Shown one piece after another: positions 2,350 through 62,736 of a DNA stretch of 64,000 bases. The notes under the pieces are model-generated. The model searched no databases. It saw nothing but the letters and a program-made list of their open reading frames with translations, and was not told where the DNA came from. Source of the stretch: Escherichia phage EcS1; sequence record NC_055721.1; one strand, written 5' to 3'. The first letter of the stretch is position 1; each line of letters begins with the position of its first letter. Made by a program: the position numbers and the translations under genes.

Positions 2350-3687
2350 ATGGCTATTCCTTCAGTAACGATTACCCCAGTTAATGCCTCACCACAACTT
2401 GGTCAGACATTAACTATCAATTCAGTAGTTGAATTCGACCCAACAGATGTTTATACATCGTATAAATGGGAACTTTCTGGCGCAGATACAGGCGTTACTA
2501 CTGCAACATACACTAAAGCCAATATCACAAGTGCTGATGCTGGTTCTTACGTATTAAAAGTTATGCATGGTGTTGATGCAGGTTCTGCAACTGAAACCGC
2601 TTCAAGTCCTGCCGTTATTACTACTTTACCGGCAACAACTGTTTCTATTGTTTCAACCACTACTGACATTTATGTCGGTGATACATTAACTATTACTGCT
2701 ACCCCAACTGGTGTTCCTTCTGGCGCAACAGTAGGCGCATATGAATGGTCTAAAGGTGGTACTGTAGTTTCGGGCCAAACTACTTCTACATTGACTAAAA
2801 CAGTTGCGGCTGGCGATGCCGGTTCTTATACTGCTAAAGTATCTTATACTGTAACAGGCCAAGCACCAATTAAAACTGCTGCATCTAATGCTATCTCTGT
2901 TACTGTTGGACCTGCATTAGCATTTGCTACTAACCTTAATGCAACAGCTTCTGTATCAACAGGCCAAGCTCTTACCCTAACTGTAGCAGCATCCGGTGGT
3001 AAATCTCCATATACATATCAATGGAAGAAAGGAAGTGCTAACATAGGAACTAATTTAAATACATTTATAGTTCCTTCTGCGGATTCAACAACTGCAGGAA
3101 CTTATACTGTTGAAGTGACAGATGCTGCAAGTCATAAAATCACATCAGCTTCTTGTGTTGTTACAGTGGTGCCTGCTTTATCTTTGAGCACCGATTTGTC
3201 TGCGACTAAATCAGTTGTTTCAGGTAAAACTCTTACTCTAACTATTGTTGCAGCTAATGGCAAAACGCCTTATACATATCAATGGAAAAGAGCTGGCGTT
3301 GAAATCCCAAGTGAAACAGCTGCTACATTTACTAAATCTGCGTCACCAGCGGACGCAGGTACGTATACATGTGAAGTGACAGATGATAATAACGATAAAA
3401 TCACATCTAATACATGTGTTGTAACTGTTAGTTTATTGCCTGATTTAGAAGTTCTTTGGACTGTACATCCTATCCCATGGCGAGATACAAGTTTCACTCC
3501 GTTAGGTTATTGGGTATTAGATGAAATCTTACTTCAAAAAGCTGATGGCAAAGACTGGAAAACTGATTACGCTACTTATCATTACACAGAAGAAGTTCAA
3601 ACTATTTTAGAAGCATTTAATGCTATGGGTGAAGTTGAAATTCAAGACTCGCGTAATGGGTATATCCACAAAATGAGTTTAATTTAA
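2350..3687 (+). CDS. hoc: Hoc-like outer capsid decoration protein: four Ig-like repeats plus C-terminal capsid-binding domain
   Basis: Four ~90-aa repeats, the last two ending in AGTYTVEVTD / AGTYTCEVTD with internal YTYQWK (Ig-like signature); C-terminal ~80 aa (HPIPWRDTSF...) non-Ig domain; T4 hoc position. Confidence 0.7.
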   Translation: MAIPSVTITPVNASPQLGQTLTINSVVEFDPTDVYTSYKWELSGADTGVTTATYTKANITSADAGSYVLKVMHGVDAGSATETASSPAVITTLPATTVSIVSTTTDIYVGDTLTITATPTGVPSGATVGAYEWSKGGTVVSGQTTSTLTKTVAAGDAGSYTAKVSYTVTGQAPIKTAASNAISVTVGPALAFATNLNATASVSTGQALTLTVAASGGKSPYTYQWKKGSANIGTNLNTFIVPSADSTTAGTYTVEVTDAASHKITSASCVVTVVPALSLSTDLSATKSVVSGKTLTLTIVAANGKTPYTYQWKRAGVEIPSETAATFTKSASPADAGTYTCEVTDDNNDKITSNTCVVTVSLLPDLEVLWTVHPIPWRDTSFTPLGYWVLDEILLQKADGKDWKTDYATYHYTEEVQTILEAFNAMGEVEIQDSRNGYIHKMSLI

Positions 3688-3696
3688 GAAGGTTTT

Positions 3697-4194
3697 ATGG
3701 CTGATAAATGGACAACAGTTAACCCAATCCCGTGGCGAGATACAAGTTTTACGTATCTCCCTTACTGGCTTTACGATATTATAGTTAAAGCCTTTAAAGA
3801 CGGTAATGATTGGCGTGATTATTCTGAAACGAAATACAAATTAGAATTTGATACCTTGATTCAAGCATTCGAAGACTACGATGACATTTCAGTTATTGAA
3901 TCACGTAATGGTAATCTACATGATTTATCTAATTTTACACCAGTAACAATCACAGCTAAATCACCTGTGCCAGCTTTTAAAGTTGGTGACCCAGATTTAG
4001 TTATCAGCGCATTGTTCACAATTGATCCAGTTAAATTAGGGCAGCATGCAGTGTTATCTGTTGATGCTTCTGGACATGCTGTATTAAGCAGCAGTGCTGT
4101 ACCATCCGTTAAGGCTGTTTCGGCTGGGACAACTGTGGTGACATGTACTATTGGTGATGTATCAGAAACAATTAGTTTAGTTGTAACTGTATAG
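3697..4194 (+). CDS. Hoc-related protein with inverted architecture: N-terminal capsid-binding-like domain plus C-terminal Big_2-like Ig domain
   Basis: N-terminal 80 aa (NPIPWRDTSFTYLPYW...ESRNGNLH) paralogous to Hoc C-terminal domain (HPIPWRDTSFTPLGYW...DSRNGYIH); C-terminal part resembles a bacterial Ig-like group 2 domain. Confidence 0.6.
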   Translation: MADKWTTVNPIPWRDTSFTYLPYWLYDIIVKAFKDGNDWRDYSETKYKLEFDTLIQAFEDYDDISVIESRNGNLHDLSNFTPVTITAKSPVPAFKVGDPDLVISALFTIDPVKLGQHAVLSVDASGHAVLSSSAVPSVKAVSAGTTVVTCTIGDVSETISLVVTV

Positions 4195-4231
4195 CAAAAA
4201 GGGAGAGCTTACGCTCTCCCTTTTTTATTTT
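4195..4231. terminator. Bidirectional intrinsic terminator (GGGAGAGC-TTAC-GCTCTCCC with A/T runs)
   Basis: 8-bp GC-rich stem flanked by A5 and T-run between convergent hoc-related gene and inh-like gene. Confidence 0.8.
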
Positions 4232-6490: not shown

Positions 6491-6714
6491 TTGACTTCAA
6501 ACAATTTGTTCATGAAGCAGCAATCGAAACCTTTATGTCTAAAATAGGGTCTTGTATGACCCTTGATGGACTTAAAGAACTCGAAGGCTATTACAAGAAA
6601 CGTTCAGGTGAAACTGAATTAGGTGATTCAGACGACATCAGTATTCGTGATGCATTGGCAGGCAAGCGTACAGAGCTTGAGTCGATGGATGATGAAGAAG
6701 ATGAAGATTTTTAA
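6487..6714 (+). CDS. uvsW.1: UvsW.1 small acidic protein
   Basis: 75 aa, overlaps uvsW stop, same size and position as T4 UvsW.1. Confidence 0.7.
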   Translation: MIDFKQFVHEAAIETFMSKIGSCMTLDGLKELEGYYKKRSGETELGDSDDISIRDALAGKRTELESMDDEEDEDF

Positions 6715-6748
6715 TACAAAAAAGCCCCGACCATAAGGAAGGGGCAAA
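6715..6748 (-). terminator. Intrinsic terminator for minus strand (GCCCC...GGGGC stem followed by U-run on minus-strand RNA)
   Basis: 5-bp GC stem with 12-nt loop; T-run on minus strand; downstream of small minus-strand ORF. Confidence 0.5.
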
Positions 6749-6775
6749 ACCAACAAAGTGGCTATCAACACTAGA

Positions 6776-6940
6776 CTAAATTAAAAGTTGCGTTTCGTTC
6801 AATTGCTCTTGTGTGTCTTCAGTGACAGGCAATTCACACGCATAATTATAGCAAGGACCTGGATGAACCAGACCTTTGTCTGATTGAACAACCAATGCCG
6901 AATCGATTGGTGTTTTACAGACGACACAAATCTCAGACAT
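6776..6940 (-). CDS. Small Cys-containing protein (54 aa), not in ORF track
   Basis: ATG with GGAG RBS; MSEICVVCKT...PGPCYNYAC (CxxC...C....C); late promoter box upstream. Confidence 0.4.
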   Translation of the reverse strand: MSEICVVCKTPIDSALVVQSDKGLVHPGPCYNYACELPVTEDTQEQLNETQLLI

Positions 6941-14980: not shown

Positions 14981-15292
14981 TTAGTTACGGAAACCAATGA
15001 AAGCTGGAATTTCAAGGAACAAACTTGTGAATTGCTCTTTACCTTCAAGAGATTTATGGAAGAACTTCACTGATACTGGGAATTCACCTTCAATTTTGCC
15101 ATGAAGGATACCGTCAACAATTGTTTCAGATTGTTCTTCTTTACCAAAGATTTCTTGAGGAATCATTAGAACATCATATTGCTCAGGTGATTTAAAAATC
15201 TGAGATGAGGCTTTTAATGCAAACTCATCAGAAATAGGAGTAACATTTTCAACAACGATTTCAGTTTGGTTAATACGTAAGATAGATTTCAT
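14981..15292 (-). CDS. Hypothetical protein (alt-downstream gene)
   Basis: 103-aa ORF with GAGGA RBS; own early-type promoter upstream. Confidence 0.45.
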   Translation of the reverse strand: MKSILRINQTEIVVENVTPISDEFALKASSQIFKSPEQYDVLMIPQEIFGKEEQSETIVDGILHGKIEGEFPVSVKFFHKSLEGKEQFTSLFLEIPAFIGFRN

Positions 15293-15320
15293 AATAAGTT
15301 CCTCATGTGATTGAGGTTCT

Positions 15321-15349
15321 ATAGTACCACATCCTTGTGGTGTTGTAAA
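15321..15349 (-). promoter_or_regulatory. Early sigma70-type promoter (-35 TTTACA, 17 bp, -10 TACTAT)
   Basis: Read on minus strand; matches T4 early promoter pattern; immediately upstream of 14981-15292 gene. Confidence 0.5.
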
Positions 15350-17413
15350 CTACCCTTGAATAAAACGTTCTGGGATTTCTTGGATGTCTATTAAAGAAGC
15401 TAAAAGAGCTAGTCCTTCTTTGTTAGGATTAGGCTTTGAAGCCTTCACAAATGAGGTAAAGTTCAATGGTTCAGAAGTGTCCATAGCAACAAGTTCACCA
15501 TTCTCAAACAATGCATCACCATCATACACTATAGTAGATTCTTCAATTTGTTCTGAAGTCATGATTTCAGCTTGAATGAACTTTTGGTTACTATATTGAA
15601 TACCGTCATTATAAGAAGCATCAGTTATAGAATTAATGGATACCATTGTTCCACGAGGTAAAATGATTTCCATTTCAGAAGGCATATTACTCAAATCACC
15701 AGGGAAGATGACGTTAATTTTATGACCACCATCAATAGCCCAACCAACTGTAACTCTGATATCATTTTCAAATTGGCCTGGCATATCTTTTGCTTCTTCG
15801 GAACCTGCATCAATGTTAAGTTCACTACGAACTTCTTCAGGAGCTAAACCAATAGCCGAATTTCCTTTCCAACCACCAAAGATGATAGGAGCTAATGAAG
15901 TAGAAACATAATTACGGAAATAGAATACACGGTTTTTAATCAATGATTCCCAAATAGGCTTACGTATAGTTTGAGAACGCCATAACGTAATATTTTCTGG
16001 GATGCGGTCACCACGTTCAAAAGCAGCATCAATTCCATCAATAGCTTCTAAGACTTCATAGCGATTCATTATATTGCTACTTTGCTCAGACCAACGGCCA
16101 AGCAAATAATCATTAATATCATGATAACCAGAACCAACATATTCTCTGATACCACGTTGCTCTTTTACTGGATATTGTAAAGGAGTACGAGAGCCAGCTA
16201 TACCATTAATATTATCTGATACGTTTTTGGCATAGTTTTGAAGTGATTCTTTGATGAACTTAGTTCTTAACATAGTCCATTCAGCTTGAGCACGTTCTTT
16301 TGACATGCCATAATTATCATCCAATTGTTTATCTATAAAATCTTCTTTAAAATCTTCAGTCATATCCATGCATAATTTAGCATATTCTTGCATACTTTTA
16401 ACAGAAGTTAAAGGAGCTTGACCTATATTTTTAATTAAAACTTCAGTCATTCGATCTGACATTCTAGCAATAGTATCTTCATCAATAAATCTTAAATTTT
16501 TTAATCTATAACCAATACCGTTGACGGCTCTTTCTGCTGATCTTGTTCTAGCAGCCTTAGAAGTTAGCACCAATTCTAATTCGCGTGCTTCTGGGACTAA
16601 ATTAGCAGTTGCCGGCTTATTAAACTTAGAAGCTCTGGCTTCAATTTCATCCCATTTAGGGTCACTAAATGAATCCGTAGCCATTGATTGGGATGCAGCT
16701 ACTTGTCGGCGCGAAACCTTAGTACGATTAATTACTGAACGATCTGAACGATCTTTTTCAATTTCAGCAATAGAACCAGCAAAAGCTTCATCTTTAGTTA
16801 CATTTTCGCCTGTTTTCTTAGAAACATACACATCGCCGACCTTAGATTCAACCTTAGTGTATAGCTCAGAATTGATTTCAGGGATGCCAGAGATATCCTC
16901 TAGACCACGAGACTTACGATAGATAAGAATATATGCGTGCTTTGAAGTAAATGTATAGAGCGCATCCAGGACTTTAAATTGACCACCTGTACGAGCCATT
17001 ACCAGACGTTGCATGATGCGTTGAACAGTTCGTTCTTGGCCTTTCATTTTCTTGGCCGGGAAACGGAACATCACAGCATCCATACGGTTCTTTTTAACTA
17101 CTGAATACACAGTGTCGAAGATAGTATTCAATGCACCTACAGGATCGGAACCTAATCCACCTTTAAGTTCAGCAGGTGTTCCTTTATCACTTAGTGACAT
17201 CAGAATAACGTGTGCGTATTTGTCGCCTTGTTTAATCTGTTTAGTCGCATCACCTTGAGACAAATATGAAACCATACGAGCAACTAGCTTATCATTACCT
17301 GGAACTTTAATAGACCAGAGTTGTGGAACTTTTGCTTTTGGGTTCAAATCAATGACTGGATATCCATTTTCGGATTCGCTGTCAAAAACTTCAACCAATA
17401 AATTATCAGTCAT
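15350..17413 (-). CDS. alt: Alt ADP-ribosyltransferase (packaged, modifies host RNA polymerase)
   Basis: 687 aa (T4 Alt 682); position between 54 and 30; ART-like STS (YVSTSL) and ExE (SEMEI) motifs. Confidence 0.75.
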   Translation of the reverse strand: MTDNLLVEVFDSESENGYPVIDLNPKAKVPQLWSIKVPGNDKLVARMVSYLSQGDATKQIKQGDKYAHVILMSLSDKGTPAELKGGLGSDPVGALNTIFDTVYSVVKKNRMDAVMFRFPAKKMKGQERTVQRIMQRLVMARTGGQFKVLDALYTFTSKHAYILIYRKSRGLEDISGIPEINSELYTKVESKVGDVYVSKKTGENVTKDEAFAGSIAEIEKDRSDRSVINRTKVSRRQVAASQSMATDSFSDPKWDEIEARASKFNKPATANLVPEARELELVLTSKAARTRSAERAVNGIGYRLKNLRFIDEDTIARMSDRMTEVLIKNIGQAPLTSVKSMQEYAKLCMDMTEDFKEDFIDKQLDDNYGMSKERAQAEWTMLRTKFIKESLQNYAKNVSDNINGIAGSRTPLQYPVKEQRGIREYVGSGYHDINDYLLGRWSEQSSNIMNRYEVLEAIDGIDAAFERGDRIPENITLWRSQTIRKPIWESLIKNRVFYFRNYVSTSLAPIIFGGWKGNSAIGLAPEEVRSELNIDAGSEEAKDMPGQFENDIRVTVGWAIDGGHKINVIFPGDLSNMPSEMEIILPRGTMVSINSITDASYNDGIQYSNQKFIQAEIMTSEQIEESTIVYDGDALFENGELVAMDTSEPLNFTSFVKASKPNPNKEGLALLASLIDIQEIPERFIQG

Positions 17414-17456
17414 AGTGTTACCTTTAGCAGTTTATTATATTCTAGTATTTATGCCC

Positions 17457-17476
17457 AAAAGGAGCCCGAAGGCTCC
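17457..17476 (-). terminator. UUCG-tetraloop hairpin (GGAGCC-UUCG-GGCUCC on minus RNA) with U-run
   Basis: Plus strand GGAGCCCGAAGGCTCC preceded by AAAA. Confidence 0.6.
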
Positions 17477-17671
17477 TTAAGCTGCAGATATTGGCAATAA
17501 CGTACGATAGACTTCAAAATACGGTGCTTTTTCATATGAGTCTAAAGTGTTATCTCTGAATTCACGATAAGCAGTCATATCAAAAAAATCAAGAATAATT
17601 TGAGAACAAGAGGTGGAAACATCTCCACCTTCTTTACGAGCGATAACAACTGTTTCTAAGTAAGCTTTCAT
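17477..17671 (-). CDS. Hypothetical small protein
   Basis: 64-aa ORF between ligase and alt. Confidence 0.35.
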   Translation of the reverse strand: MKAYLETVVIARKEGGDVSTSCSQIILDFFDMTAYREFRDNTLDSYEKAPYFEVYRTLLPISAA

Positions 17672-21394: not shown

Positions 21395-21408
21395 GGGCCC
21401 GAAGGCCC
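21395..21408 (-). promoter_or_regulatory. Intercistronic UUCG-tetraloop hairpin (GGGCC-UUCG-GGCCC)
   Basis: Plus strand GGGCCCGAAGGCCC between stop at 21417 and start at 21376. Confidence 0.6.
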
Positions 21409-22746: not shown

Positions 22747-22763
22747 TTGTTGATTGAGTGTAC

Positions 22764-22791
22764 ATCTTAACACAATCCTAGGAGAAGTAAA
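22764..22791 (-). promoter_or_regulatory. Early promoter (-35 TTTACT, 16 bp, -10 TAAGAT)
   Basis: Minus-strand reading; initial transcribed sequence shares TGATTGAGTGTACA with promoter at 21811. Confidence 0.45.
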
Positions 22792-22795
22792 CACC

Positions 22796-22990
22796 TTATT
22801 TTACATGACTGAATTCTACATCAGACCAGATGCCGAAAGGCGGAAGATTAGGTTCTTCTTTAAAGGCTAACTTTTTGACATCAGTCCAAGGCCAACAGCA
22901 AACTTCGTGCTCGTATAACCAGCATGTTCCTTGCAAAGGACTCTCAGGATGCATTTCTATAATTTTATAAACCAAAGTTTTCTTGAACAT
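22796..22990 (-). CDS. Hypothetical small protein
   Basis: Start moved to internal ATG with GAGGTG RBS; the track start lies inside the terminator hairpin. Confidence 0.35.
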   Translation of the reverse strand: MFKKTLVYKIIEMHPESPLQGTCWLYEHEVCCWPWTDVKKLAFKEEPNLPPFGIWSDVEFSHVK

Positions 22991-23015
22991 ATTCACCTCA
23001 TACAGATACAAAAAT

Positions 23016-23033
23016 GGGAGACCGAAGTCTCCC
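23016..23033 (-). terminator. UUCG-tetraloop terminator (GGGAGAC-UUCG-GUCUCCC then AUUUUUGU)
   Basis: Plus GGGAGACCGAAGTCTCCC; member of a dispersed repeat family. Confidence 0.7.
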
Positions 23034-23038
23034 ATAAC

Positions 23039-23218
23039 TTATGCTACAGCTCGCGGCTTTCCAAAACGAGAAGCATCGTCGCGTAACACGGCTCGTGCAC
23101 GACGCATAATCTTCTCAACTGTCTGATTAATACGCTTGTTCGACCCACGCTTATATTTCGCGCGTTTAGAGGTACCAACTACTTCTTTAACTGCTTGTTT
23201 CTTAGCTTGCTTAGCCAT
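23039..23218 (-). CDS. Small highly basic protein (59 aa; MAKQAKKQAVKEVVGTSKRAKYKRGSNKR...), not in ORF track
   Basis: ATG to TAA ORF verified by manual translation; Lys/Arg-rich; followed by terminator. Confidence 0.4.
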   Translation of the reverse strand: MAKQAKKQAVKEVVGTSKRAKYKRGSNKRINQTVEKIMRRARAVLRDDASRFGKPRAVA

Positions 23219-26720: not shown

Positions 26721-27182
26721 TTAACCCCAGTAGAACGAATAGCGTACAAAGAGCTTTTCACTTAAATCAAGTTCAAGATCAAAGTCTACTTTAAAGGAGG
26801 AATAAGTAACATCTAATTTAAAGTTAGTATCTTTAAGCAGAATATTCAGTACACCTGCAACTTCACCATGAATTTGTGCCTGAGTTCCAGGCTCATTAAT
26901 GTTTTCATAGAGATGATTAGAAATAACCTGTTTAACAACCAGTTCTAAGACTTCAGTGTAACGTGGGAACTGAGAAGACTTATCTTCATCCATAAAGCTA
27001 TTAATGAATTCCAGAGCTTGGTTTAAATTCACATGACCTGAATAAAAGCGTTCACGTGTTGTACGGTTAATAGCTACAATATAAGCTTTATCAACTGATG
27101 CTGTTTCATCAATATTAAAAGCAAATTTATTTTGCTTTTCTACAAGTGATTTAGCACCATATAAGGTTTCAAAGGTAATCAT
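26721..27182 (-). CDS. Hypothetical protein
   Basis: 153-aa ORF in the cd.x-like variable region. Confidence 0.4.
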   Translation of the reverse strand: MITFETLYGAKSLVEKQNKFAFNIDETASVDKAYIVAINRTTRERFYSGHVNLNQALEFINSFMDEDKSSQFPRYTEVLELVVKQVISNHLYENINEPGTQAQIHGEVAGVLNILLKDTNFKLDVTYSSFKVDFDLELDLSEKLFVRYSFYWG

Positions 27183-29558: not shown

Positions 29559-29587
29559 AATAATATCCTCAAATTTAATTATCCCAT

Positions 29588-29603
29588 AGAGCCCGAAGGC
29601 TCT
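29588..29603 (-). promoter_or_regulatory. Intercistronic UUCG-tetraloop hairpin (AGAGCC-UUCG-GGCUCU)
   Basis: Plus AGAGCCCGAAGGCTCT. Confidence 0.55.
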
Positions 29604-29760
29604 AAGATTTTAAAATCAGTTTAATAGCTTTATATGCAAAGATTAATATCATACCAAATGCTATTAAGCCAGTCATACCACTAGCACAACCAACGCTGCA
29701 ACGCATGCAAGCAGAGCAACAACCAATCCTGCACAAAACAATGTAGCGCCTAAAGTCATT

Positions 29761-30410: not shown

Positions 30411-30904
30411 AATTTAACGATTGTCTCAAAGATATCGTCTTGAGTCATATTGTTGATAAGAATATGATGGGGTGAATCAGAAGCTGAAATCTTAAAGCAA
30501 GTTTCAACCATTGAAGCCATTTCGTCAGCAGTTAAACGAGAATGCTGGATTCCAAGACGATGATTACCATAGATTGGGTCAACAATAATGTAACATTTGT
30601 TGCCACTCAGATGGACATTAGGCTGGCTGATGTTAATGAACACTTCAGCGCCATATTTACCCAACTGGTTTTCAAGGAAGCTCTTCATTTCTTCTACTGC
30701 GTCAGGCATAGCATCACGACGAGCTTCAGTGACTTTGTTGTTGTATTCTTTTTGCTTTTTACGTTTAGAAAGATTACGTGCCATGGCAATACGAAGATCG
30801 GTGATGTAACCAATAGTCTTAGAACCTTTAAAGATACTGATTCCATCATGACGATCACCGTATTGAGCCATAACCATTTCATTTGTAATAAGTTGCATAT
30901 TCAT
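30398..30904 (-). CDS. alc: Probable Alc (host transcription shutoff protein) by synteny and size
   Basis: 168 aa from ATG 30904 (T4 Alc 167 aa); between rnlA and spanins as in T4; sequence not verified. Confidence 0.45.
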   Translation of the reverse strand: MNMQLITNEMVMAQYGDRHDGISIFKGSKTIGYITDLRIAMARNLSKRKKQKEYNNKVTEARRDAMPDAVEEMKSFLENQLGKYGAEVFINISQPNVHLSGNKCYIIVDPIYGNHRLGIQHSRLTADEMASMVETCFKISASDSPHHILINNMTQDDIFETIVKLCLL

Positions 30905-30933
30905 TTTAATATCCTCATTTTGTTGGTAGGAGA

Positions 30934-30962
30934 ATCTTATCACAACAAAATGAGGATGTAAA
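30934..30962 (-). promoter_or_regulatory. Early promoter (-35 TTTACA, 17 bp, -10 TAAGAT) inside 13-bp inverted repeat
   Basis: Arms CCTCATTTTGTTG (30913-30925) and CAACAAAATGAGG (30943-30955); the downstream arm contains the alc SD (GAGG). Confidence 0.55.
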
Positions 30963-32135
30963 CTACTCTTGTTCGATTACAATTTCTTTCTTATATTCGT
31001 CTGGAACGAAGAACTTGTGATTCTTGTTAAAAGCTTCGTTAAGCTGTGGAATTAACTTATCTAGGTCTAAACCACCTGTGAACGCTTTCATCAGAATTGG
31101 GAACAGATAAGAACGGTCTGCATCTTTAAAGATTGTTTGAGCAGAGATAGCGAAGTCTTTACGGTCACGACCAGCTAGTTGCTTATAAGTTGTTTGAACT
31201 AAGTCTAATGCATGACGCAAGAACTCTAAATGAATAGTTTCAAACTTATCAATCTTAGTGATAGCCCATTCATCGCCTGCGAACATAGAACGAAGGTCAT
31301 CAGAACCACCAGACACGACAGATTCGAAGAGAGCTTCGTTTTTAGTGATGGAATCTTTAGTACGATGCAAAGCAACATACCAATCAGTTTTGAGCTTAAA
31401 GTTCAAACCGTTTTCCATTACAAAAACATAACCTTCTACACCTTCTTTGGCGCGAATGCCAGGCACAAATCGTTCATCGGCAGGAACATTAAATGCTTCT
31501 ACCAAATGAGGACGAAGCATTGCATCTTTAAACAATTCTTCATATGGAACATATTCACCAGTCTTATTTTCACGAACATTCAGAAGAATCAGGTCACGTT
31601 TACTATAAGCCAGAACGATACGGTTATCTGGTGCAACGTATTCCATGTTACAAGTGAAGCCATCTTTAGTAAGTTGAGTCACACGTTTCAAGAATTTTTC
31701 ATAACGTGGACCATTGATAACTTGTAGTGCTGCATAAGCTTGTTCAGAAGAAATAGAAGCCTTAGACTTCAAGAACAGTTGGTCGTTATCTACAAAGCTA
31801 GAGATTAGAGAACCATCAGCCTTATCCATCATCAATTTGATTTTAGTAAGGTCCAAGTTCATGGTAAATGGAGTTTCATCTAAGTTAAAGAATTTTTCCA
31901 TCGGACGAGCTGCAATACGAGTAGGCTTACCATCGACCATTTCAAACATAATGCCGCGGCACTCTAGAGCGTCAGGCAGAAGCCAATCAGAGTAAGATGC
32001 ATAGTTATAACTGAAGATACGATACTCACCACCAAACGGCGTCTGGTAGTCACGGAAATAGAATTTAGACTGGTCTTTTGGGTCAGTCAATTTCATCAGG
32101 TTTTTGTACAAATCATGTTCTTGTTTAGTAATCAT
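30963..32135 (-). CDS. rnlA: RNA ligase 1 (tRNA repair)
   Basis: Matches T4 gp63 as recalled: YRIFSYNYASYSDWLLPDALECRGIMFEM, RPMEKFFNL, adenylation motif KADGSL. Confidence 0.9.
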   Translation of the reverse strand: MITKQEHDLYKNLMKLTDPKDQSKFYFRDYQTPFGGEYRIFSYNYASYSDWLLPDALECRGIMFEMVDGKPTRIAARPMEKFFNLDETPFTMNLDLTKIKLMMDKADGSLISSFVDNDQLFLKSKASISSEQAYAALQVINGPRYEKFLKRVTQLTKDGFTCNMEYVAPDNRIVLAYSKRDLILLNVRENKTGEYVPYEELFKDAMLRPHLVEAFNVPADERFVPGIRAKEGVEGYVFVMENGLNFKLKTDWYVALHRTKDSITKNEALFESVVSGGSDDLRSMFAGDEWAITKIDKFETIHLEFLRHALDLVQTTYKQLAGRDRKDFAISAQTIFKDADRSYLFPILMKAFTGGLDLDKLIPQLNEAFNKNHKFFVPDEYKKEIVIEQE

Positions 32136-32554: not shown

Positions 32555-32568
32555 GGGGCCGAAGCCCC
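32555..32568 (-). promoter_or_regulatory. Intercistronic UUCG-tetraloop hairpin (GGGGC-UUCG-GCCCC) between nrdB and denA
   Basis: Plus GGGGCCGAAGCCCC. Confidence 0.55.
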
Positions 32569-39868: not shown

Positions 39869-40143
39869 TTTGTTTTCTTAGCAATTTTCCAGGCAGCTTT
39901 GAAAGCTTCGACTTCTTCAATTTCAATCCAAAAACCAGAACCAAAGCCATCGTCATAACAAGGACAGCCGTCGCAATAGTCTTCCCAAGTAAGATCACGA
40001 CCGCCAAGAGAAGAACCAGTTTCCATTGCACGCAGACGAATTTCAGCAGCTTCAATAGCTTCAGGGTCGTTACCTTCAATAGTGAAGTACCATTTTCCAC
40101 GATATTCATTACCTAAGTTGATTGAGTTACGTTTAAGTTTCAT
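39865..40143 (-). CDS. Hypothetical small protein
   Basis: Start at ATG 40143 with GGAG RBS downstream of promoter 40170-40198. Confidence 0.4.
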   Translation of the reverse strand: MKLKRNSINLGNEYRGKWYFTIEGNDPEAIEAAEIRLRAMETGSSLGGRDLTWEDYCDGCPCYDDGFGSGFWIEIEEVEAFKAAWKIAKKTK

Positions 40144-40169
40144 TTTATTCTCCTTGTTGGTGTAGAAGC

Positions 40170-40198
40170 ATAATACCATACCTCTACACCGTTGTACA
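40170..40198 (-). promoter_or_regulatory. Early-type promoter (-10 TATTAT, -35-like TGTACA) flanked by inverted repeat GGTGTAG/CTACACC
   Basis: Cassette nearly identical over ~45 bp to the one at 58003-58042. Confidence 0.45.
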
Positions 40199-40537
40199 CT
40201 ACTTATTGAAAGTCTTTTTGATCAATGCAATCATTTCTTCTGCATTGCCTTCGTAGACAGTCAAAGTTATCGACTCATCTTTTATTTTTTCAAAGTATTT
40301 GAATTCACCTTGTGCTAGTTCAAAGTAAGGGACAAAACCACCTGAACCTGCAACTTGCCCATTGGCAAACTCGATTTCATCTACATAAAGGTCATAATCA
40401 CATTTACTAACATTTCGAACAGTGAACCAACCACCATTCTTATCGATCAAACGAACCATTTCATTGTTACAATGAGCATTTTCCATGAAAGCTGAGGTGC
40501 ACTCTTCTTTCAAGCGATATTTTTTATCAACTTGCAT
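40199..40537 (-). CDS. Hypothetical protein
   Basis: 112-aa ORF. Confidence 0.4.
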   Translation of the reverse strand: MQVDKKYRLKEECTSAFMENAHCNNEMVRLIDKNGGWFTVRNVSKCDYDLYVDEIEFANGQVAGSGGFVPYFELAQGEFKYFEKIKDESITLTVYEGNAEEMIALIKKTFNK

Positions 40538-40539
40538 TT

Positions 40540-40770
40540 TTATTCACCTGATTCAACAATTGTATCAAAAAGTTCTTCAATCATTTCTGGGTACATGCCA
40601 ACACAGTACTCACGGTTTAGATAAAGATTGATAGTACGACGGTCACCTTCAATAGTGATTTCCATACTGTAACCATTAGTAACACATTCAACTTCTTTAA
40701 GATTGTACTTATCAAGACAAGTCTCTTTGAAATAAGCATAATCGTAGATATCAATAGTTACTTTAGCCAT
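40540..40770 (-). CDS. Hypothetical small protein
   Basis: 76-aa ORF with GAGGAAAAC RBS; early promoter upstream. Confidence 0.4.
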   Translation of the reverse strand: MAKVTIDIYDYAYFKETCLDKYNLKEVECVTNGYSMEITIEGDRRTINLYLNREYCVGMYPEMIEELFDTIVESGE

Positions 40771-40800: not shown

Positions 40801-40829
40801 ATCTTACCACATCTAAATGAGGTTGTAAA
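40801..40829 (-). promoter_or_regulatory. Early promoter (-35 TTTACA, 17 bp, -10 TAAGAT)
   Basis: Immediately downstream of gene 32 terminator. Confidence 0.5.
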
Positions 40830-40842
40830 CAGATACAAAAAT

Positions 40843-40860
40843 GGGAGACCGAAGTCTCCC
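40843..40860 (-). terminator. UUCG-tetraloop terminator after gene 32 (GGGAGAC-UUCG-GUCUCCC then AUUUUUGU)
   Basis: 34-bp sequence identical to the element at 23002-23035. Confidence 0.7.
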
Positions 40861-40867
40861 ATCATTA

Positions 40868-41773
40868 TTACATACCTGCTAACAGAGCATCTAAGTCGTC
40901 TTCATCAGCACCACTTGGTGTGGTATCACGAGATTGGACATTAGTACGAGCTGTATCAGTAAAGTCTTTCATATCTTGGTCGAAGGCATCAAGTGAATCA
41001 CCGATTGCATCAGCCTGAGCAGAAGCTTTAGCGGCAGCACCACCAAGTGCAGCGATACCAAATACTTGTTCAAATTTCTTCTGGTTTACATCCAGAGTTT
41101 TGAACTTATCTTTAGAAGTCAGTTCGCTCAAATCAGACATATTGTCATTGAGGAATGTCTGGAACGTTTCGTCGTTGATATTAGGGATTTCAGATTGACC
41201 TAAGAATTTAGAGTCATCATAGTTCTTGAAATCACCGACTTTCTTAGTTTTCAGTACGAAGTTCGCACCATCGAAAGGACATGTCACATCGACTGGAGTT
41301 TCACCGATAGAGGTATCAACTTCAACCATTGCTGTGATTTTGTCGTATACTTTCTGACCAAAACGGAACTTGAATACTTTACCTTCTGTTTCTGGGTTAG
41401 CTTTATCTTGAACAACCAAGATGTTAGCCCAGTATGAAGTCTTACGCTTCAGGAGTTGGTATTCAGGCTTATTCGTATTGTACGAATCATTTTTAGACAG
41501 ATATTGGCAAACTGGACAGTTATCAAAGTCACCATGAGTAGAAGTACAGTTTTCGATGTACCATTTACCATTTTTCTTGAAACCGTGATTCACCAGCTTA
41601 GCAAACGGAAGACCTTCATCACCTTTACCTGGAAGGAAACGAATAACAGCCATGCCATTACCGTTGTCGTCTTTCAATTTCCATTCATTCTTATCGTCAG
41701 AAGAGAAACCTTGACCACCTTTCAGAGAAGCCAGTTGTGCTTGAAGAGCTGCAGGATCTTTACGCTTGAACAT
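40868..41773 (-). CDS. 32: Single-stranded DNA-binding protein gp32
   Basis: 301 aa as T4 gp32; near-colinear ([45 protein letters not shown]). Confidence 0.9.
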
Positions 41774-41858: not shown

Positions 41859-42512
41859 TCAGATTTTGCAACTCTTGATAGTTTGTATAAAGAGCGTTTT
41901 AGCTTCCAAGGGATTAATATTCAAAATCTTCTTGTAAGCTTTCAATTTAATCGAATAATTCGACCAAACTAAATCAGTAGACAGTTCGTCATGTTTATCT
42001 ATTATATCCAAAAAAGAATCAAGCAAAATAAACGTTTCAAAACTGATAACGTTTGATTGGAGAAGCTTGAAGATATAACTCGAGCTGACGTTCTTATTAT
42101 ACACAAATAATTCGTTAAGCGAATTGGTTTCAACTTTCTGAGCGAAGTAATACATGTTCTTAATATCATCTTCGAACACGGTTTTAACTCGTTTCAGTTT
42201 ACCAATATATTCACGATAAAATACTAACGCGTCAGCATCACTGATGTCGCCAATCCATGCATCTTGGTTAGCAACCAAGTTACTCATGAATATTAATGTT
42301 AGTTCTTTAAGAGTGTATTTGTCAGCTAGTTTTTCAAAGAAATACTTGTCACGACGTTTGTTATAGGCTGCGTCAGAAATTCGCATGGTCCAATTATACT
42401 TTATAACGTCGTAACGACCATTAAAGTGCTGTTTGAGCATCAAATACAACATATAAACTGATTTACCATTTATATGTCGTGTATTATTAGGAGGCATGCG
42501 AATTTGAATCAT
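41859..42512 (-). CDS. 59: Helicase loader gp59
   Basis: 217 aa as T4 gp59; strong match (GKSVY.LYLM.KQH.NG.YDVIKYNW, ANQDAWIGDISDADALVFYREYIG). Confidence 0.9.
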   Translation of the reverse strand: MIQIRMPPNNTRHINGKSVYMLYLMLKQHFNGRYDVIKYNWTMRISDAAYNKRRDKYFFEKLADKYTLKELTLIFMSNLVANQDAWIGDISDADALVFYREYIGKLKRVKTVFEDDIKNMYYFAQKVETNSLNELFVYNKNVSSSYIFKLLQSNVISFETFILLDSFLDIIDKHDELSTDLVWSNYSIKLKAYKKILNINPLEAKTLFIQTIKSCKI

Positions 42513-44132: not shown

Positions 44133-47100
44133 ATGGCCGATATTTTAAAACCTGCTTTCCGTGCCACATCCGGCCTTGATGCAGGTGGCGATAAAGTTAT
44201 CAACGTTGCGAAAGCTGATTTCGACGTTTTAAGTGATGGTGTTAACGTTGATTTCTTCATTGAAGAAAACACCATCCAAGAATATATTGAAACACGTGCA
44301 TACCGTCAAAACTTTGCTGTTATGTTTGATGGACGTATCTGGACTGCTAAAGCTGATATTGCTTCACCTTCAGGGCCATTCCAAGAAGCACGTTGGACTG
44401 CATTACGTACTGACCCAAAATGGAAATATGTTACTTCAGGGGCGAACAATGCTCTTAATTCAGGCGATACCATTTCTGTTACTACTGAATTAGGCGATGT
44501 TGGATTCATTTTACCAAATGATCCACAAGATGGCGACACCATTGTAATTAAAGATGTCGGTGCGAAGGTTGGTTACAATTCACTTAAAGTAAAAGTATCA
44601 AACCAACAGATCGTTAATTTAGGTAACAAAGTAAATGAACTTCTGATTACCAAACCACGTTCAGAAAACGTGTTTATTTTTAGTAATCGTTTATGGTATT
44701 TTTATGCTGCTGAAGAAAGTATTCATGCAACTCAAATCACTGTAGCAAATAACGAATATCGTGCATCGGCTAGTGAACGTATCTTCCGTACTCACTCAGC
44801 GCCAGGTGCAATCATTGTTGTTCTGCCTAAATACGCAAACAATGGTGATATCATTTATTTCACTGACCTTGATGGGTTAGCTCCGTTACAACATTTAATT
44901 GTTAAGACATTTGATAACACTTCAAGTATTGGTAAAGCTGGACAATATCAGATTGAATCACGTACTTCGGCCGATGGCTTAGTTATCTACGATGCATCTA
45001 CTAAAGTATGGAAGATTTGGGACGGCGATATCAGACAACGTCTTCGTATTATTCGTGATGACGTAAATCTGTTAGCCAATGAAAGTGTCATGGTTTTTGG
45101 TGTTAATAACTCAGTTCAAAAAACAATTAACATTAAATTACCTGCTGGCGTTGCGATCGGTGATAAAGAACGTATCGCAATGAACTATATGCGTAAAGGT
45201 CAGAAAGTAATTATTACCGCTGCAACTGGCGATAAAATTGCTACTTCTAAAACTTTGCTTCAGTTCCCTAAACGTTCTCAGTATCCACCTGATGTTGAAT
45301 GGGTTAAAGTCGATTCATTAGAATTTGATGGTACCATTGATTATGTTCCTATTATGGAATTATCTTATGTGGAAGATGGTGCTGAAAAGTATTGGGTTGT
45401 TTCTACTAATGATCCGACAGTAGAACGTGTTGATGCAACTAGTGATGCTAATAGACAACGTTTAGGTGTTATTGCTCTGGCAAGCCAGGCGCAAGCTAAT
45501 GCGAACCATGAACAGACTCCTGAAAAAGAATTAGCTATTACTCCAGAGACTTTAGCTAACAGAACAGCTACTGAAACTCGTCGTGGTATAGCACGTGTAG
45601 CAACAACAGCTGAAGTTAATAAATTAACGACTGACACTTATGCTGATGATACTATTATTACACCTAGAAAGTTAAATGAACGTTCAGCTACTGAAACTCG
45701 TCGTGGACTTGCTGAAATTGCAACTCAGCCTGAAACTAATGCCGGAACAGATGATACAGTCATTATAACGCCGAAAAAACTAGAAGCACGTCGTGCAACT
45801 GAAACTATGGCTGGTATTGCGCCTTTAGTTGTTTCAGGTGGTATTCCAGGTATTGACCGTGATACTGTAGGAACTGGCATTTACGAACGTACTGAACATA
45901 CTCGTCAAGTAACGCCTAAGACCTTGTTTGAAAATAAGGCTACTCAGACGGCGCAAGGTGGTGTTTGGATGGCAACTGGCAATGAAACTATTGCTGGGGT
46001 AGTTGATACTCCTGCGATGCCTCTAGCTGTGTCTCCTGAACAACTACATAAAAAGACTGCTACTGAAACTCGTATTGGTTTTACCGAAATTGCTACACAA
46101 CCGGAAACTGATGCTGGGACTGATGACTTCAGATTCATTACGCCTAAGAAATTAAATAACCGTAATGCTACCGAAACTTTGACAGGTATATCGCGTGTCG
46201 CGACACAAGTGGAATTTGATGCTGGTACTTTAGATAATGTTATTTCAACTCCGTTGAAAATTAAAACTAGATTTAATGATACCGCTCGTACTTCTGTTAT
46301 CCCAGCCAGTGGTTTAACTGAATCAGGAACTCTCTGGAACCATTATACACTGGATATTCGAGAAGCATCTGAAACACAACGTGGTACAGCTCGTTTAGCG
46401 ACTCAACTTGAAGTAAATACTGGTACAGATGATAAAACAATTGTTACTCCTTTAAAACTTCATAGCAAAAAAGCTACTGAATCTTCTGAAGGTATTATCC
46501 AAGTAGCAACTCAGGCTGAAACAGTTACAGGCACATCTCCAACTAAAGCAATATCGCCTAAGAACTTCAAATATGTTGTTCAACAAGAAACGACTTGGGA
46601 AGCAAGTCCAACCACTCGTGGTTTTGTTAAGATTTCTGAAAATGCTATTACTTGGGTAGGTAATAATACAGCTGGGTCTACTAAACCATTAGACCAATAT
46701 GTGAAATCTGGGTATGCTATTTCTCCATATGAGTTGAATAAAACTCTGGCTAATTATTTGCCATTAATGGCTCAAGCTGAAGATTCACGTAATTTAGATG
46801 GACTTGATTCACTTCAATTCATCCGTCGTGATATCGACCAAACTGTGAATGGCAAATTAACTCTGACCAAAGAGTTAGTGACTTCTGCTGCTATTACTTC
46901 AACTGCCGCTGCAACATTTGATTCAGTATTAAGTATCAAAACAGTGACAATTGGTAATAATACAGGTAATGCTATTTTCAATATGGCTGGGACCACGAAC
47001 CCATGGGCTATTTCTGCATTATCATCTAAAGATACTATTGAATTCAAGTCTGGTACTTCAGCTAATGCTTTAGTATTGAATAAGAATGGTGATACAACAA

Positions 47101-47917: not shown

Positions 47918-49066
47918 ATGTCTAATATTATGGCTGGTTTCGGTAATGGATTTGTCGAAACCCAAATCATATCAGAAAATAATGCTGTAAGATATAAACT
48001 GTCAATAGCGGCCGGACTTAAAAAGTCCGTGCCTGCTATAGGTTATGTTTTATTGCAAGATAAACCGTTAGGCCCGCAAGAGAGTCCTCCTGGATTAACC
48101 GTTAGAGAATTTAATGTTGCAACAAATACAATTGCATCATCTAAATTATTTGAATTTAAAAATGGTGAAGCAGGCGGAGCTTCTCAAGCATTTGTGGATT
48201 ATATTACGGCCTTATCTTCTAAACCTAATGTAATTGTTATTCTTACATCAGGTGATAGATTATATTCTAATGCGGCAATTGATACATGGTTTTTAAATGC
48301 ATCAGCAACAAGTTGGCCAGGCACATGGAGGTGTTCTAAATTCCCATGCTCTTACGTTGCTTTTTATTCTCCACTTTATAAAAAGATAGTTCAAGAACAT
48401 GCTACTTATAGCGATGATATTTTAAGACAGGAAGATGTCAGAGCTCAATTAGAAATTGTTTATGATAAGTTCAATGATATAGGCGCTACTGGATTTTCTA
48501 AACGTTCTATAGAAGACCCTACTGAATATTCAAGTAGCACTGAGTTTGACTTTGTACGATATCCTATCGGTGCGCCTATTATCGCACCAATGGCTGACTA
48601 TTCATTGAGAGCTGGTTCAAAGGTAAAGGTATCGTTTGAATTATATGCTTCAGCCGATTTATTAGCTACAGGTCAAACAGTCCGTATTAGTTTTCGTTGG
48701 TTTAAAGATACCGCTATTCTTACGTCTCAGACGAATGAGGTGGCACTCGGACAAGCCGATAGATGGATAAAGTACGAACGGGTTCTAGATGTCCCTGCCA
48801 CCGCTGACGGCTTCACAATCATTGTTTCTAGATATCCTCGACAACCTGAACCTGGGCTTGGAGCTATCAAGAATTTAATTATGACAGAAGTCTCAAGACA
48901 AGATGAAGCATTAACTCGTCCTGCTGAATTTGGTGTCAATGGTATAAGAATGAACAAAGCTATAGATGGAACTGTGTCTGAATTGTTGATTCTTGCTGAT
49001 ACTAGCGATGATCCGTCAGGACAAGTTGAATCAGTTGAGTTCAGAGAACTTAAGAAAGATGTATAA
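47918..49066 (+). CDS. 35: Long tail fibre hinge protein gp35
   Basis: 382 aa; synteny 34-35-36-37. Confidence 0.7.
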   Translation: MSNIMAGFGNGFVETQIISENNAVRYKLSIAAGLKKSVPAIGYVLLQDKPLGPQESPPGLTVREFNVATNTIASSKLFEFKNGEAGGASQAFVDYITALSSKPNVIVILTSGDRLYSNAAIDTWFLNASATSWPGTWRCSKFPCSYVAFYSPLYKKIVQEHATYSDDILRQEDVRAQLEIVYDKFNDIGATGFSKRSIEDPTEYSSSTEFDFVRYPIGAPIIAPMADYSLRAGSKVKVSFELYASADLLATGQTVRISFRWFKDTAILTSQTNEVALGQADRWIKYERVLDVPATADGFTIIVSRYPRQPEPGLGAIKNLIMTEVSRQDEALTRPAEFGVNGIRMNKAIDGTVSELLILADTSDDPSGQVESVEFRELKKDV

Positions 49067-49070
49067 TATT

Positions 49071-49088
49071 GGGAGACTTCGGTCTCCC
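49071..49088 (+). terminator. UUCG-tetraloop hairpin (GGGAGAC-UUCG-GUCUCCC then AUUUUAG) after gene 35
   Basis: Same repeat family as 54632; directly followed by late promoter box. Confidence 0.6.
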
Positions 49089-49095
49089 ATTTTAG

Positions 49096-49103
49096 TATAA
49101 ATA
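49096..49103 (+). promoter_or_regulatory. Late promoter box TATAAATA for gene 36
   Basis: Exact box ~25 nt upstream of ATG 49128. Confidence 0.55.
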
Positions 49104-52741: not shown

Positions 52742-52746
52742 GAGAA

Positions 52747-52760
52747 GGGGCTTCGGCCCC
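52747..52760 (+). promoter_or_regulatory. UUCG-tetraloop hairpin (GGGGC-UUCG-GCCCC) between gene 37 and first gp38-like gene
   Basis: Plus GGGGCTTCGGCCCC. Confidence 0.55.
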
Positions 52761-52772
52761 TTAAGGATTAAT

Positions 52773-53966: not shown

Positions 53967-54626
53967 ATGGCCACTCCAAGAACACCAATCCCAATAGCAG
54001 ATATTCTATTTGGTGTTCTGGACAGACTCTTCAAAGACAACGCCACAGGACGAGTTCTAGCTTCTAGAGTTCTAACTGTGATTATCTTATTCATTTTATG
54101 CCTAATTTGGTACAGAGGCGATGCGTTCATGCAGACTTATAAAGAGTCTCGTTATGATACGTATTCTGAAGTACTTCAAAAGGATCGTGATGTTAAATTT
54201 GAGACTTCTGCTCTAGAACAACTTCAAATAGTGCATGTATCAAGCGGTGCTGATTTTTCAGCGATATATTCATTTAGACCTAAAAATTTAAATTACTTTG
54301 TGGATTTAATAGCGTACGAAGGGAGACTTCCATCTACAGTTAATGAAAAAAACTTAGGTGGATATCCAGTAGATAAGACTTCAGGGGAGTATTCAGCTCA
54401 TTTGAATGGTGCGTATTTTACATCATCAATAGAGTATGTTTTCTTGCCAACGAAGAAGAAAAATGAAGAATTAAAATATATGTTTTCTTGCCCATATTTT
54501 AATTTAGATAACGTTTATTCAGGAACTGTTTCAATGTACTGGTATTCTGGTAAACCACACATCGTTGATTCAAGATTAAACGCTATCTGTCAACAGGCTG
54601 CTCGTACTTTAGGCAGAGCTAGATAA
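53967..54626 (+). CDS. t: Holin T
   Basis: 219 aa; near-colinear with T4 holin T as recalled (DILFGVLDRLFKDNATG.VLASRV, LEQLQIVH.SS.ADFSA.YSFRPKNLNYFVD.IAYEG.LPST, CPYFNLDN.Y.GT..MYWY). Confidence 0.9.
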   Translation: MATPRTPIPIADILFGVLDRLFKDNATGRVLASRVLTVIILFILCLIWYRGDAFMQTYKESRYDTYSEVLQKDRDVKFETSALEQLQIVHVSSGADFSAIYSFRPKNLNYFVDLIAYEGRLPSTVNEKNLGGYPVDKTSGEYSAHLNGAYFTSSIEYVFLPTKKKNEELKYMFSCPYFNLDNVYSGTVSMYWYSGKPHIVDSRLNAICQQAARTLGRAR

Positions 54627-54631
54627 TATTT

Positions 54632-54649
54632 GGGAGACTTCGGTCTCCC
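54632..54649. terminator. UUCG-tetraloop terminator between convergent t and asiA
   Basis: GGGAGACTTCGGTCTCCC followed by ATTTTAG. Confidence 0.65.
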
Positions 54650-54652
54650 ATT

Positions 54653-57595: not shown

Positions 57596-57638
57596 TTGAA
57601 ACTCCATTATGTTTTAATCAATTTGTTGGTGTAGGAGT

Positions 57639-57667
57639 ACTATACCATGTTTTGATGCTGTTGTAAA
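57639..57667 (-). promoter_or_regulatory. Early promoter for motA (-35 TTTACA, 17 bp, -10 TATAGT)
   Basis: Minus-strand reading; preceded by GAGCTCTT/AAGAGCTC hairpin at 57679-57698. Confidence 0.55.
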
Positions 57668-57709
57668 CACTTTATTTTGAGCTCTTTTTCAAGAGCTCTG
57701 GTAAAATGC

Positions 57710-57973: not shown

Positions 57974-58013
57974 TTTGTATCTCCAGTTTGTTTCATTTTG
58001 TTGGTGTAGAAGC

Positions 58014-62706: not shown

Positions 62707-62736
62707 TTGACCTCAATAAGGGCCGAAGCCCTTTAT

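Follow-up and report, generated by a model that had tools for sequence, protein, structure and literature searches.

Near-identical UUCG hairpins at the ends of transcription units in the T4-like Escherichia phage EcS1

Escherichia phage EcS1 (NC_055721.1) is a T4-like phage with a 175-kb genome, the final 64 kb of which (64,000 nucleotides, here called the window, with all coordinates given as window positions unless another genome is named) carries a dispersed family of near-identical hairpins with the core GGGAGAC-UUCG-GUCUCCC. Judging from their sequence and surroundings, these elements are very probably Rho-independent terminators that also act as protective hairpins at the 3' ends of T4-like phage messages. 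They are a kind of signal known in T4 since 1988, namely, the C(UUCG)G terminator and stability hairpins at conserved T4-type transcription unit ends. The sole point that goes beyond the published accounts is that the comparison of stems suggests lineage-specific homogenization across paralogous sites. The closest relatives of the ~6-kb region around the hairpin at 23016 are phages of the Winklervirus group (Kosakonia phage Kc304, Serratia phage CHI14, and others), with ~77% nucleotide identity, and CHI14 was used for most of the comparisons below.

A family of UUCG hairpins in the window

A preliminary description of this DNA had listed five occurrences of the core. The exact 18-mer GGGAGACTTCGGTCTCCC (GGGAGAC-UUCG-GUCUCCC) is present in four copies in the window, at 23016-23033 and 40843-40860 on the minus strand and at 49071-49088 and 54632-54649 on the plus strand. 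The fifth occurrence turned out to be only a variant, located at 62951 and not at 62952 (62951-62968, minus strand), with two mismatches at the outermost positions that compensate each other (AGGAGAC...GTCTCCT). Shuffled window sequence contained no match to the core 18-mer. The identity of 23002-23035 with 40829-40862, also claimed in that description, is exactly 34 bp long, extends on neither side, and is the longest exact repeat in the window. The ~36 bp said to be shared by 49061-49095 and 54622-54656 were likewise found, at about 35 of 36 positions, including an upstream ATAATAT and a 1-nt indel; 49069-49096 and 54630-54657 are identical over 28 bp. A shorter GGGCC/GGCCC family is present at all six places given for it, with three starts corrected (to 22363, 29587, and 52745) and with one member, at 17459-17478 on the minus strand, that had been overlooked.

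In total, the window holds 12 C(UUCG)G hairpins, the 5 long copies and 7 shorter ones, with perfect stems of 4 to 9 bp and a C-G closing pair. The chance level was obtained by counting UUCG hairpins by stem length in 300 dinucleotide shuffles of the window. Stems of at least 4 bp numbered 14 in the window versus 2.0 ± 1.4 in the shuffles, and stems of at least 5 bp numbered 11 versus 0.53 ± 0.78 (maximum, 4), which rules out chance or base composition as the source of the hairpins. UUCG and CGAA are by far the commonest tetraloops among the perfect hairpins of the window, with 11 hairpins each versus 5 for the next loop. The two UUCG hairpins closed by an A-U pair, at 29451 and 59207, lie in coding sequence and are at the level expected by chance.

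The C(UUCG)G hairpins are intergenic in all 12 cases, beginning 0 to 11 nt past a stop codon. The motif count and orientation check proposed in the preliminary description, run on the window, showed that the loop, read in the sense of the neighboring genes, is UUCG and not CGAA in 12 of 12 cases. This strand bias points to a role at the level of RNA. A search of the whole window with the Rfam 15 families at the gathering score gave no match.

The long copies and their surroundings

The long copies and the features that adjoin them are as follows.

23014-23035, minus strand: hairpin AUGGGAGAC-UUCG-GUCUCCCAU, 3 nt past the stop of a 30.9-like gene (23039-23218)
22796-22990, minus strand: 64-codon open reading frame (ORF) (MFKKTLVYKIIEMHPESPLQGTCWLYEHEV...) between the 23016 hairpin and the promoter at 22763-22792, with no promoter of its own
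22763-22792, minus strand: early-promoter-like GTTTAC-N17-TAAGAT, 5' of a 30.8-like gene
40829-40862, minus strand: predicted gene 32 terminator, hairpin (40841-40862) and U-tract, 5 nt past the gene 32 stop (40868-40870)
40801-40830, minus strand: early promoter GTTTACA-N17-TAAGAT directly after the gene 32 hairpin, predicted to drive frd.3 (40540-40770) and frd.2
49070-49093, plus strand: hairpin UGGGAGAC-UUCG-GUCUCCCA followed by UUUU, 3 nt past the gene 35 stop (49064-49066)
49096-49103, plus strand: late promoter box TATAAATA for gene 36, whose start codon is at 49128
54631-54650, plus strand: hairpin filling the 26-nt gap between the convergent stops of the holin gene t (54624-54626) and asiA (54653-54655)
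62950-62969, minus strand: variant hairpin AAGGAGAC-UUCG-GUCUCCUU, 5 nt past the rIIB stop and identical in CHI14

The long copies fold at -13 to -19 kcal/mol with z scores of -2.6 to -4.6; the values were -16.4 kcal/mol (z = -3.3) for the hairpin at 23014, -18.7 kcal/mol (z = -4.4) at 40841, and -16.2 kcal/mol (z = -4.6) at 49070. The four exact copies (23016, 40843, 49071, and 54632) have 6 or 7 T residues in the next 10 nt. In the 23002-23035 unit, the hairpin is followed by a U-tract and the flank UUUUUGUAUCUGU, and the U-tract of the 54632 copy on the t side is UUUUAGUUU.

Two of the long copies are joined to a promoter in a predicted composite signal. The 40843 hairpin with its promoter, Shine-Dalgarno sequence (SD), and ATG is a predicted composite of the PeSL type, the layout of which is a stem-loop, an AT-rich tract, a sigma-70-like, TTTAC-type early promoter, an SD, and an ATG (Comeau 2014, PMC4122927). 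The genes that follow, frd.3 and frd.2, were identified by Pfam, and the -10 box TAAGAT of this promoter recurs in other early promoters of the window. The 49071 hairpin and the gene 36 late promoter together form a predicted terminator-late-promoter composite. The hairpin and late promoter arrangement at 35/36 is common to T4 and CHI14; this junction was compared through T4, CHI14, and CIP9, and gp35 as a search anchor gave two loci. The 64-codon ORF had no Pfam match.

Conservation and covariation in other phages

Hairpins at the same sites in other phages keep the structure with different stems. In T4, GGGAACC-UUCG-GGUUCCC stands after gene 23, GGGACCC-UUCG-GGUUCCC after gene 35, and AGGACUCC-UUCG-GGAGUCCU (a GGACUCC stem) after gene 30.9, each with a U-tract, and gene 32 is followed by GGGGACC-CUAGA-GGUCCCC and then U6. 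Among gp32 loci in IMG/VR, all 24 of 24 have a hairpin and a T-run past the stop, and in most of them, T4 included, a GTTTAC-type promoter comes next. Covariation at the gene 32 site was assessed in 11 distinct sequences anchored on the loop, in which pairs were counted and compared with 500 shuffles and slid controls. Both sides had changed in six of the eight pairs, and 96.6% of cells were paired; none of the 500 shuffles reached the observed values, and the slid controls were 35 to 63% paired. At the 30.9 site, the structure is likewise kept in 26 loci, most of which have GGGACUCC with UUCG, UACG, or UAUG loops.

Of the 12 hairpins of the window, 6 (17459, 23014, 29587, 40841, 49070, and 62950) match their CHI14 counterparts exactly or except at the stem ends, and at 52745 the difference is confined to the outermost pair. 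The stems at 21395, 22363, and 62718 differ yet still pair, and at 32555 and 54631 the stem type is switched. Stems that differ by compensatory changes at the same sites indicate selection on an RNA helix, that is, on structure and not on sequence. Strand bias and stem covariation together argue against a purely DNA-level element.

The exact 18-mer also occurs in at least 120 stretches of IMG/VR, with at least 91 different flank contexts, and at least 5 T residues fall within the next 8 nt in 102 of 121 (~84%) of the matches listed, to which all of these 18-mer figures refer. Its occurrence with a T-run in unrelated viral contigs suggests a generic terminator design. The 18-mer was also considered as a lineage-specific or mobile sequence and rejected as such; the permuted-stem controls GAGGGAC and GGAGAGC likewise gave at least 120 IMG/VR stretches each, so the GGGAGAC stem is not demonstrably special.

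Just past the gene 32 terminator, CHI14 (~26900-26960) and a Kanagawavirus-like contig have a long perfect inverted repeat (GGCACATATATGTTACATTA...TAATGTAACATATATGTGC). In the window phage, the repeat is missing and the frd.3 promoter takes its place.

Predicted function

We propose that, once RNA polymerase has moved past the stop of 30.9, 32, 35, t, or rIIB, the nascent RNA would fold into a G+C-rich stem of 7 to 9 bp, closed off by the C(UUCG)G tetraloop, which is unusually stable, and that the U-tract following the stem would lead to release of the transcript. The hairpin remaining at the 3' end would block 3'-to-5' exonucleases and so protect the upstream message. At 40843 and 49071, the hairpins would be parts of composite signals, together with the early promoter for frd.3 and frd.2 and with the gene 36 late promoter, respectively, and the 54632 copy would separate the convergent t and asiA transcripts. 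The near identity of the long copies could reflect strong purifying selection against most single changes in the stem, together with occasional gene conversion by the very active recombination system of the phage. Termination and stabilization are roles that we infer from the observed sequence, position, strand, fold stability, covariation, and conservation of the elements.

The likeness to the stable C(UUCG)G hairpins of T4 mRNA, drawn in the preliminary description, is upheld by placement, strand, U-tracts, folding energies, and cross-genus covariation. Its label of terminators suits the long copies, on the evidence of stop codon, strand, U-tract, fold, and covariation, and does not suit most of the short members, which are better called intercistronic hairpins. 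In the summary of Tuerk 1988 in PMC8948821, CUUCGG hairpins are described as especially abundant in T4 intergenic regions. Conserved terminators have been predicted in six T4-like genomes after 23, at 35/36, after 32, and upstream of alt (PMC1524935), of all T4 mRNAs that of gene 32 is the most stable (PMC3014915), and PeSL stem-loops terminated transcription in lacZ reporter fusions (PMC2839356). A literature search for T4 Term-seq data found nothing relevant.

Several observations weigh against this interpretation. The 62951 copy has a poor U-tract, CUUCAUUU (5 of 10 T), followed at once by the SD and start codon of a denB.1-like gene, and it may permit readthrough. The 64-codon ORF, having no promoter of its own, needs readthrough of the 23016 hairpin, which is therefore not a complete stop. 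On the asiA side, the tail of the 54632 copy, AAUAUUAUCU, is a weak U-tract, and five of the seven short hairpins have no more than 4 T residues in the next 10 nt. Finally, the case for gene conversion leans on flanks of 7 to 13 nt, which are partly constrained by the stop codon and the U-tract.

Alternative explanations

The hairpins could instead be purely post-transcriptional elements that serve as 3' exonuclease barriers after endonucleolytic processing, space the SD from the AUG, or uncouple the translation of cistrons, which we regard as quite improbable. In keeping with such roles, five of the seven short hairpins (21395, 22363, 29587, 52745, and 62718) have no U-tract and are followed directly by an SD. 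The hairpin at 32555 separates an SD-like AAGGA, on its 5' side, from the denA AUG, which comes 9 nt after it, and the T4 37/38 junction is alike (AAGGAG, hairpin, AAAUAUG). CUUCGG hairpins have also been credited with several roles, including reverse transcriptase stop and mRNA stabilization (PMC8948821), and processing of the gene 32 mRNA by RNase E is documented (PMC3014915). However, a U-rich tail, which a stability barrier alone does not need, is present on all four exact long copies and in ~84% of the unrelated phage contexts listed, and the long copies stand at transcription unit ends, where a new promoter comes next or transcription is convergent. Moreover, termination and post-transcriptional roles are mutually compatible. 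It is very improbable that the stem is conserved as a specific site of protein binding or cleavage, for example, for the GGAG-specific endoribonuclease RegB or a hairpin-binding factor. The 5' arm does contain GGAG, RegB is encoded by the relative CHI14, four to seven sites per genome share an identical stem, a 44-nt block is unchanged between genomes with ~77% identity, and the PeSL authors speculated about a protein that recognizes G-rich stems (PMC2839356). Against this, the same sites in other genera have quite different stems with compensatory changes, the GGAG is buried inside a very stable helix, and permuted stems are as common as the GGGAGAC stem among the IMG/VR matches listed (at least 120 each). 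RegB cleavage at the GGAG of the stem was itself judged unlikely, with the motif base-paired and other genera lacking GGAG at the same sites.

The preliminary description had further suggested that the longer copies act as sites of recombinational shuffling, an idea that is already in print as the PeSL hypothesis. The elements would then work mainly at the DNA level, as PeSL-type recombination linkers, that is, short and conserved cassettes of terminator and promoter through which neighboring genes are inserted, deleted, or swapped between related phages by homologous recombination. We consider this unlikely. It is true that the 40843 copy has the full PeSL layout, with GTTTAC-N17-TAAGAT as the promoter after the AT-rich tract, and that homology to CHI14 stops within 8 nt of the 40841 hairpin, with ~590 bp here versus ~1270 bp of unrelated genes in CHI14. 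Homology to CHI14 also breaks beside 23014, genomes with and without the 64-codon ORF differ exactly between the 23016 hairpin and its promoter, stem subtypes are swapped between sites, and PeSL mini-circles have been demonstrated in RB49 and phi1 (PMC2839356). However, a homology break just after the terminator of a conserved gene is expected anyway, and the copies other than 40843 and 23016 sit in sequence collinear with CHI14. A complete PeSL is found in only one of the five copies, since a late promoter adjoins 49071, neither 54632 nor 62951 has a promoter, and the ORF interrupts the layout at 23016, and five other early promoters of the window have no upstream hairpin. Exchange between direct copies would cost the phage essential genes (32 to 30.9, or 36 to t), and the 28 to 34 bp of homology falls below the ~50 bp cited for efficient T4 recombination (PMC2839356). 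In addition, the sense-strand loop in all 12 hairpins and the covariation of stems indicate RNA. Recombination is a possible side effect of these elements and not their main function, with support that is circumstantial.

The history of the 64-codon ORF bears on the same question. At the 30.9 site of CHI14, the promoter comes directly after the hairpin and the ORF is absent. In CC31 and further Karamvirus phages, a homologue with 34% identity stands at the corresponding position; because the position is occupied in CC31, the ORF is old and CHI14 lacks it by simple deletion. The same homologue refutes the idea that the ORF is a cassette recently inserted through the repeat.

Stem identity across paralogous sites

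Identity between orthologous hairpins can be explained by purifying selection; the 44-nt block around 23016, for example, is unchanged in CHI14 while the coding flanks have diverged. Identity between paralogous sites requires more than purifying selection and suggests that terminators have been copied over one another. Seven copies of (G/A)GGAGAC-UUCG-GUCUCC(C/U) are present in CHI14, after 23, 30.9, 32, 35, t, and rIIB and at nrdB/denA. At nrdB/denA, the window has GGGGC-UUCG-GCCCC versus the GGGAGAC-UUCG-GUCUCCC of CHI14, a difference of four symmetric insertions. The t/asiA hairpin is found only in the window phage and CHI14 among 22 T4-like t loci, the other 20 being without it. The flanks of the window copy at this junction are shared with the gene 35 copy (ATAATAT...CCCATTTTAGT), and the CHI14 copy is of the rIIB subtype (AAGGAGAC...CUCCUU). 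Other lineages also repeat a stem, with AUGGGAACC at both the 30.9 and the gene 32 sites of Kanagawavirus CIP9 and GGGA(A/C)CC at both the gene 23 and the gene 35 sites of T4. Two further hairpins of the window, at 4201 and 14954, have GGGAGAGC/GCUCUCCC arms with other loops and lie at convergent junctions.

From these patterns we tentatively infer that each lineage homogenizes the stems of its paralogous sites, probably through short-patch gene conversion. The broader proposal is that T4-like terminator hairpins evolve in concert, one stem type being recopied by short-patch gene conversion, also to new junctions such as t/asiA and the nrdB/denA junction of CHI14; this we hold to be plausible and, on balance, somewhat doubtful. 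If it were true, each genus would have a house terminator, GGGAGAC here, GGGAACC in Kanagawavirus, and GGGA(A/C)CC at T4 genes 23 and 35, and the hairpin would be a small portable module and not a set of independently maintained signals. A single stem per lineage across paralogous sites would make a simple case in which the concerted evolution of regulatory RNA signals can be tested in a virus that recombines very actively. The pattern bears on the PeSL hypothesis of modular shuffling and leaves the known workings of the hairpins unchanged.

Short hairpins and related structures

The seven short hairpins, an adjoining promoter-like box, and two bidirectional hairpins with other loops are as follows.

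17459-17478, minus strand: hairpin AAGGAGCC-UUCG-GGCUCCUU, overlapping the stop codon of an alt.1-like gene
17446-17453, minus strand: late-promoter-like box CATAAATA, after the 17459 hairpin and upstream of alt
21395-21408, minus strand: hairpin GGGCC-UUCG-GGCCC, intercistronic, no U-tract, then the SD GAGGAA
22363-22374, minus strand: hairpin GGCC-UUCG-GGCC, perfect stem of only 4 bp with an imperfect extension, then an SD
29587-29604, minus strand: hairpin UAGAGCC-UUCG-GGCUCUA, intercistronic, no U-tract, identical in CHI14
32555-32568, minus strand: hairpin GGGGC-UUCG-GCCCC, between nrdB and denA
52745-52762, plus strand: hairpin AAGGGGC-UUCG-GCCCCUU, between gene 37 and a gene 38-like gene, then directly the SD AAGGA
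62718-62733, minus strand: hairpin AAGGGC-UUCG-GCCCUU, after a denB.1-like gene, then the SD GAGG
4196-4225 (4201), unstranded: bidirectional terminator-like hairpin AAAAAGGGAGAGC-UUAC/GUAA-GCUCUCCCUUUUU at a convergent junction, with GGGAGA/UCUCCC arms and another loop
14951-14975 (14954), unstranded: bidirectional terminator-like hairpin with arms GGGAGAGC/GCUCUCCC at the convergent junction gp54/alt.-3

Because the short hairpins mostly lack a U-tract and abut ribosome-binding sites, they are likelier to be stability barriers or organizers of translation initiation, and most members of the short family are probably intercistronic hairpins of one of these two kinds. Several of them have a counterpart of another sequence in CHI14, with the stem AGGGC/GCCCU at the 21395 site, GGGCUC-UAAA-GAGCCC at the 22363 site, and AAGGCC-UGAA-GGCCUU at the 62718 site. 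The T4 37/38 junction has the hairpin AGGGGC-UUCG-GCCCUUCU. That junction is the classic case of a hairpin that brings SD and AUG together, in the split translation-initiation region of gene 38. The hairpin at 32555, which with 5 T residues in the 10 nt downstream has the highest count within the short family, resembles it in that an SD-like AAGGA and an AUG flank the hairpin, and it is possibly a split translation-initiation region as well. Unlike in T4, the 37/38 hairpin of the window (52745) precedes an ordinary SD.

T4 has a UUCG hairpin and TATAAATA at the same place before alt. A UUCG hairpin followed by (U)UCGGGCAUAAAUA, a late-promoter-like box starting with C and not T, is seen at 17446-17478 in the window and at 51776, 95191, and 126188 in CHI14. 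The convergent uvsW.1/uvsY.-2 junction (6714-6776) has a long-loop hairpin without UUCG, AAAAAGCCCC-GACCATAAGGAA-GGGGCAAAA; a conserved bidirectional terminator at this junction was reported by Nolan et al. 2006 (PMC1524935).

Comparison with known systems

The C(UUCG)G hairpins of T4 mRNA, reportedly the subject of Tuerk et al. 1988 (PNAS 85:1364), are the closest known system. Both sets have a UUCG loop closed by C-G and a short G+C-rich stem and are intergenic and on the mRNA strand, and T4 has UUCG hairpins at matching sites after 23, 35, 30.9, 37, and rIIB and upstream of alt. The T4 stems differ, being GGGAACC, GGACUCC, or GGGGC versus GGGAGAC here; in addition, the T4 gene 32 terminator has a CUAGA loop and the T4 t/asiA junction has no hairpin.

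The terminators of Nolan et al. 2006 (PMC1524935) lie at the same junctions, with bidirectional ones at convergent junctions. They differ in that they are TransTerm positions, that stem identity within a genome is not described, and that the uvsW.1 junction here is without UUCG. The PeSLs (Arbiol 2010, PMC2839356; Comeau 2014, PMC4122927) share the stem-loop terminator directly before an early promoter, SD, and ATG, as well as a lineage-specific stem-loop consensus and adjoining variable gene content, and the 40843 copy and the 30.9 site of CHI14 fit this description. In contrast to PeSLs, most copies here are without an early promoter and fall within conserved regions (late or core), not hyperplastic ones. 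For annotation, the hairpins are of value as marks of transcription unit ends after 30.9, 32, 35, t, and rIIB and before alt, and they locate terminator-promoter composites.

Gene order and other repeats

The gene order of the window is as in T4 and CHI14, with gp24 and baseplate genes at the left, a minus-strand block from alt to rnh, a plus-strand tail fiber block from gene 34 to t, and a minus-strand block from asiA to rIIB. Gene content differs from that of CHI14 at further places. CHI14 has a segD homing endonuclease gene (150044-150631 in that genome) between genes 59 and 33 that the window phage lacks (window 42503-42507); identity to CHI14 is ~87% on the gene 32/59 side of the segD site and ~77% beyond it. 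Conversely, two plus-strand genes at 2350-4194, within a minus-strand block, have no DNA match in CHI14. One encodes a 445-amino-acid protein with Ig and PKD domains, which is tentatively a Hoc-like head decoration protein, and the other encodes a 165-amino-acid protein with no family match. This gene pair ends at the bidirectional terminator-like hairpin at 4196-4225.

Repeats of other kinds are also present in the window. Gene 34 contains a 22-bp exact repeat with copies 120 bp apart (45565-45586 and 45685), and there is a tandem duplication with a 15-bp period at 61272-61298. Dispersed segments of 60 to 80 bp lie at 15281-15351, 30897-30965, 40122-40205, 57618-57678, 57964-58027, and 61777-61836, with exact repeats of 23 to 26 bp pairing 40154 with 57998 and 57629 with 61782. 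These segments match several unrelated places in CHI14. The segments at 15281-15351 and 30897-30965 overlap early-promoter-like GTTTAC-N17-TA(A/T)(G/T)AT sequences, and the dispersed segments may be T4-type early promoters with conserved surroundings.

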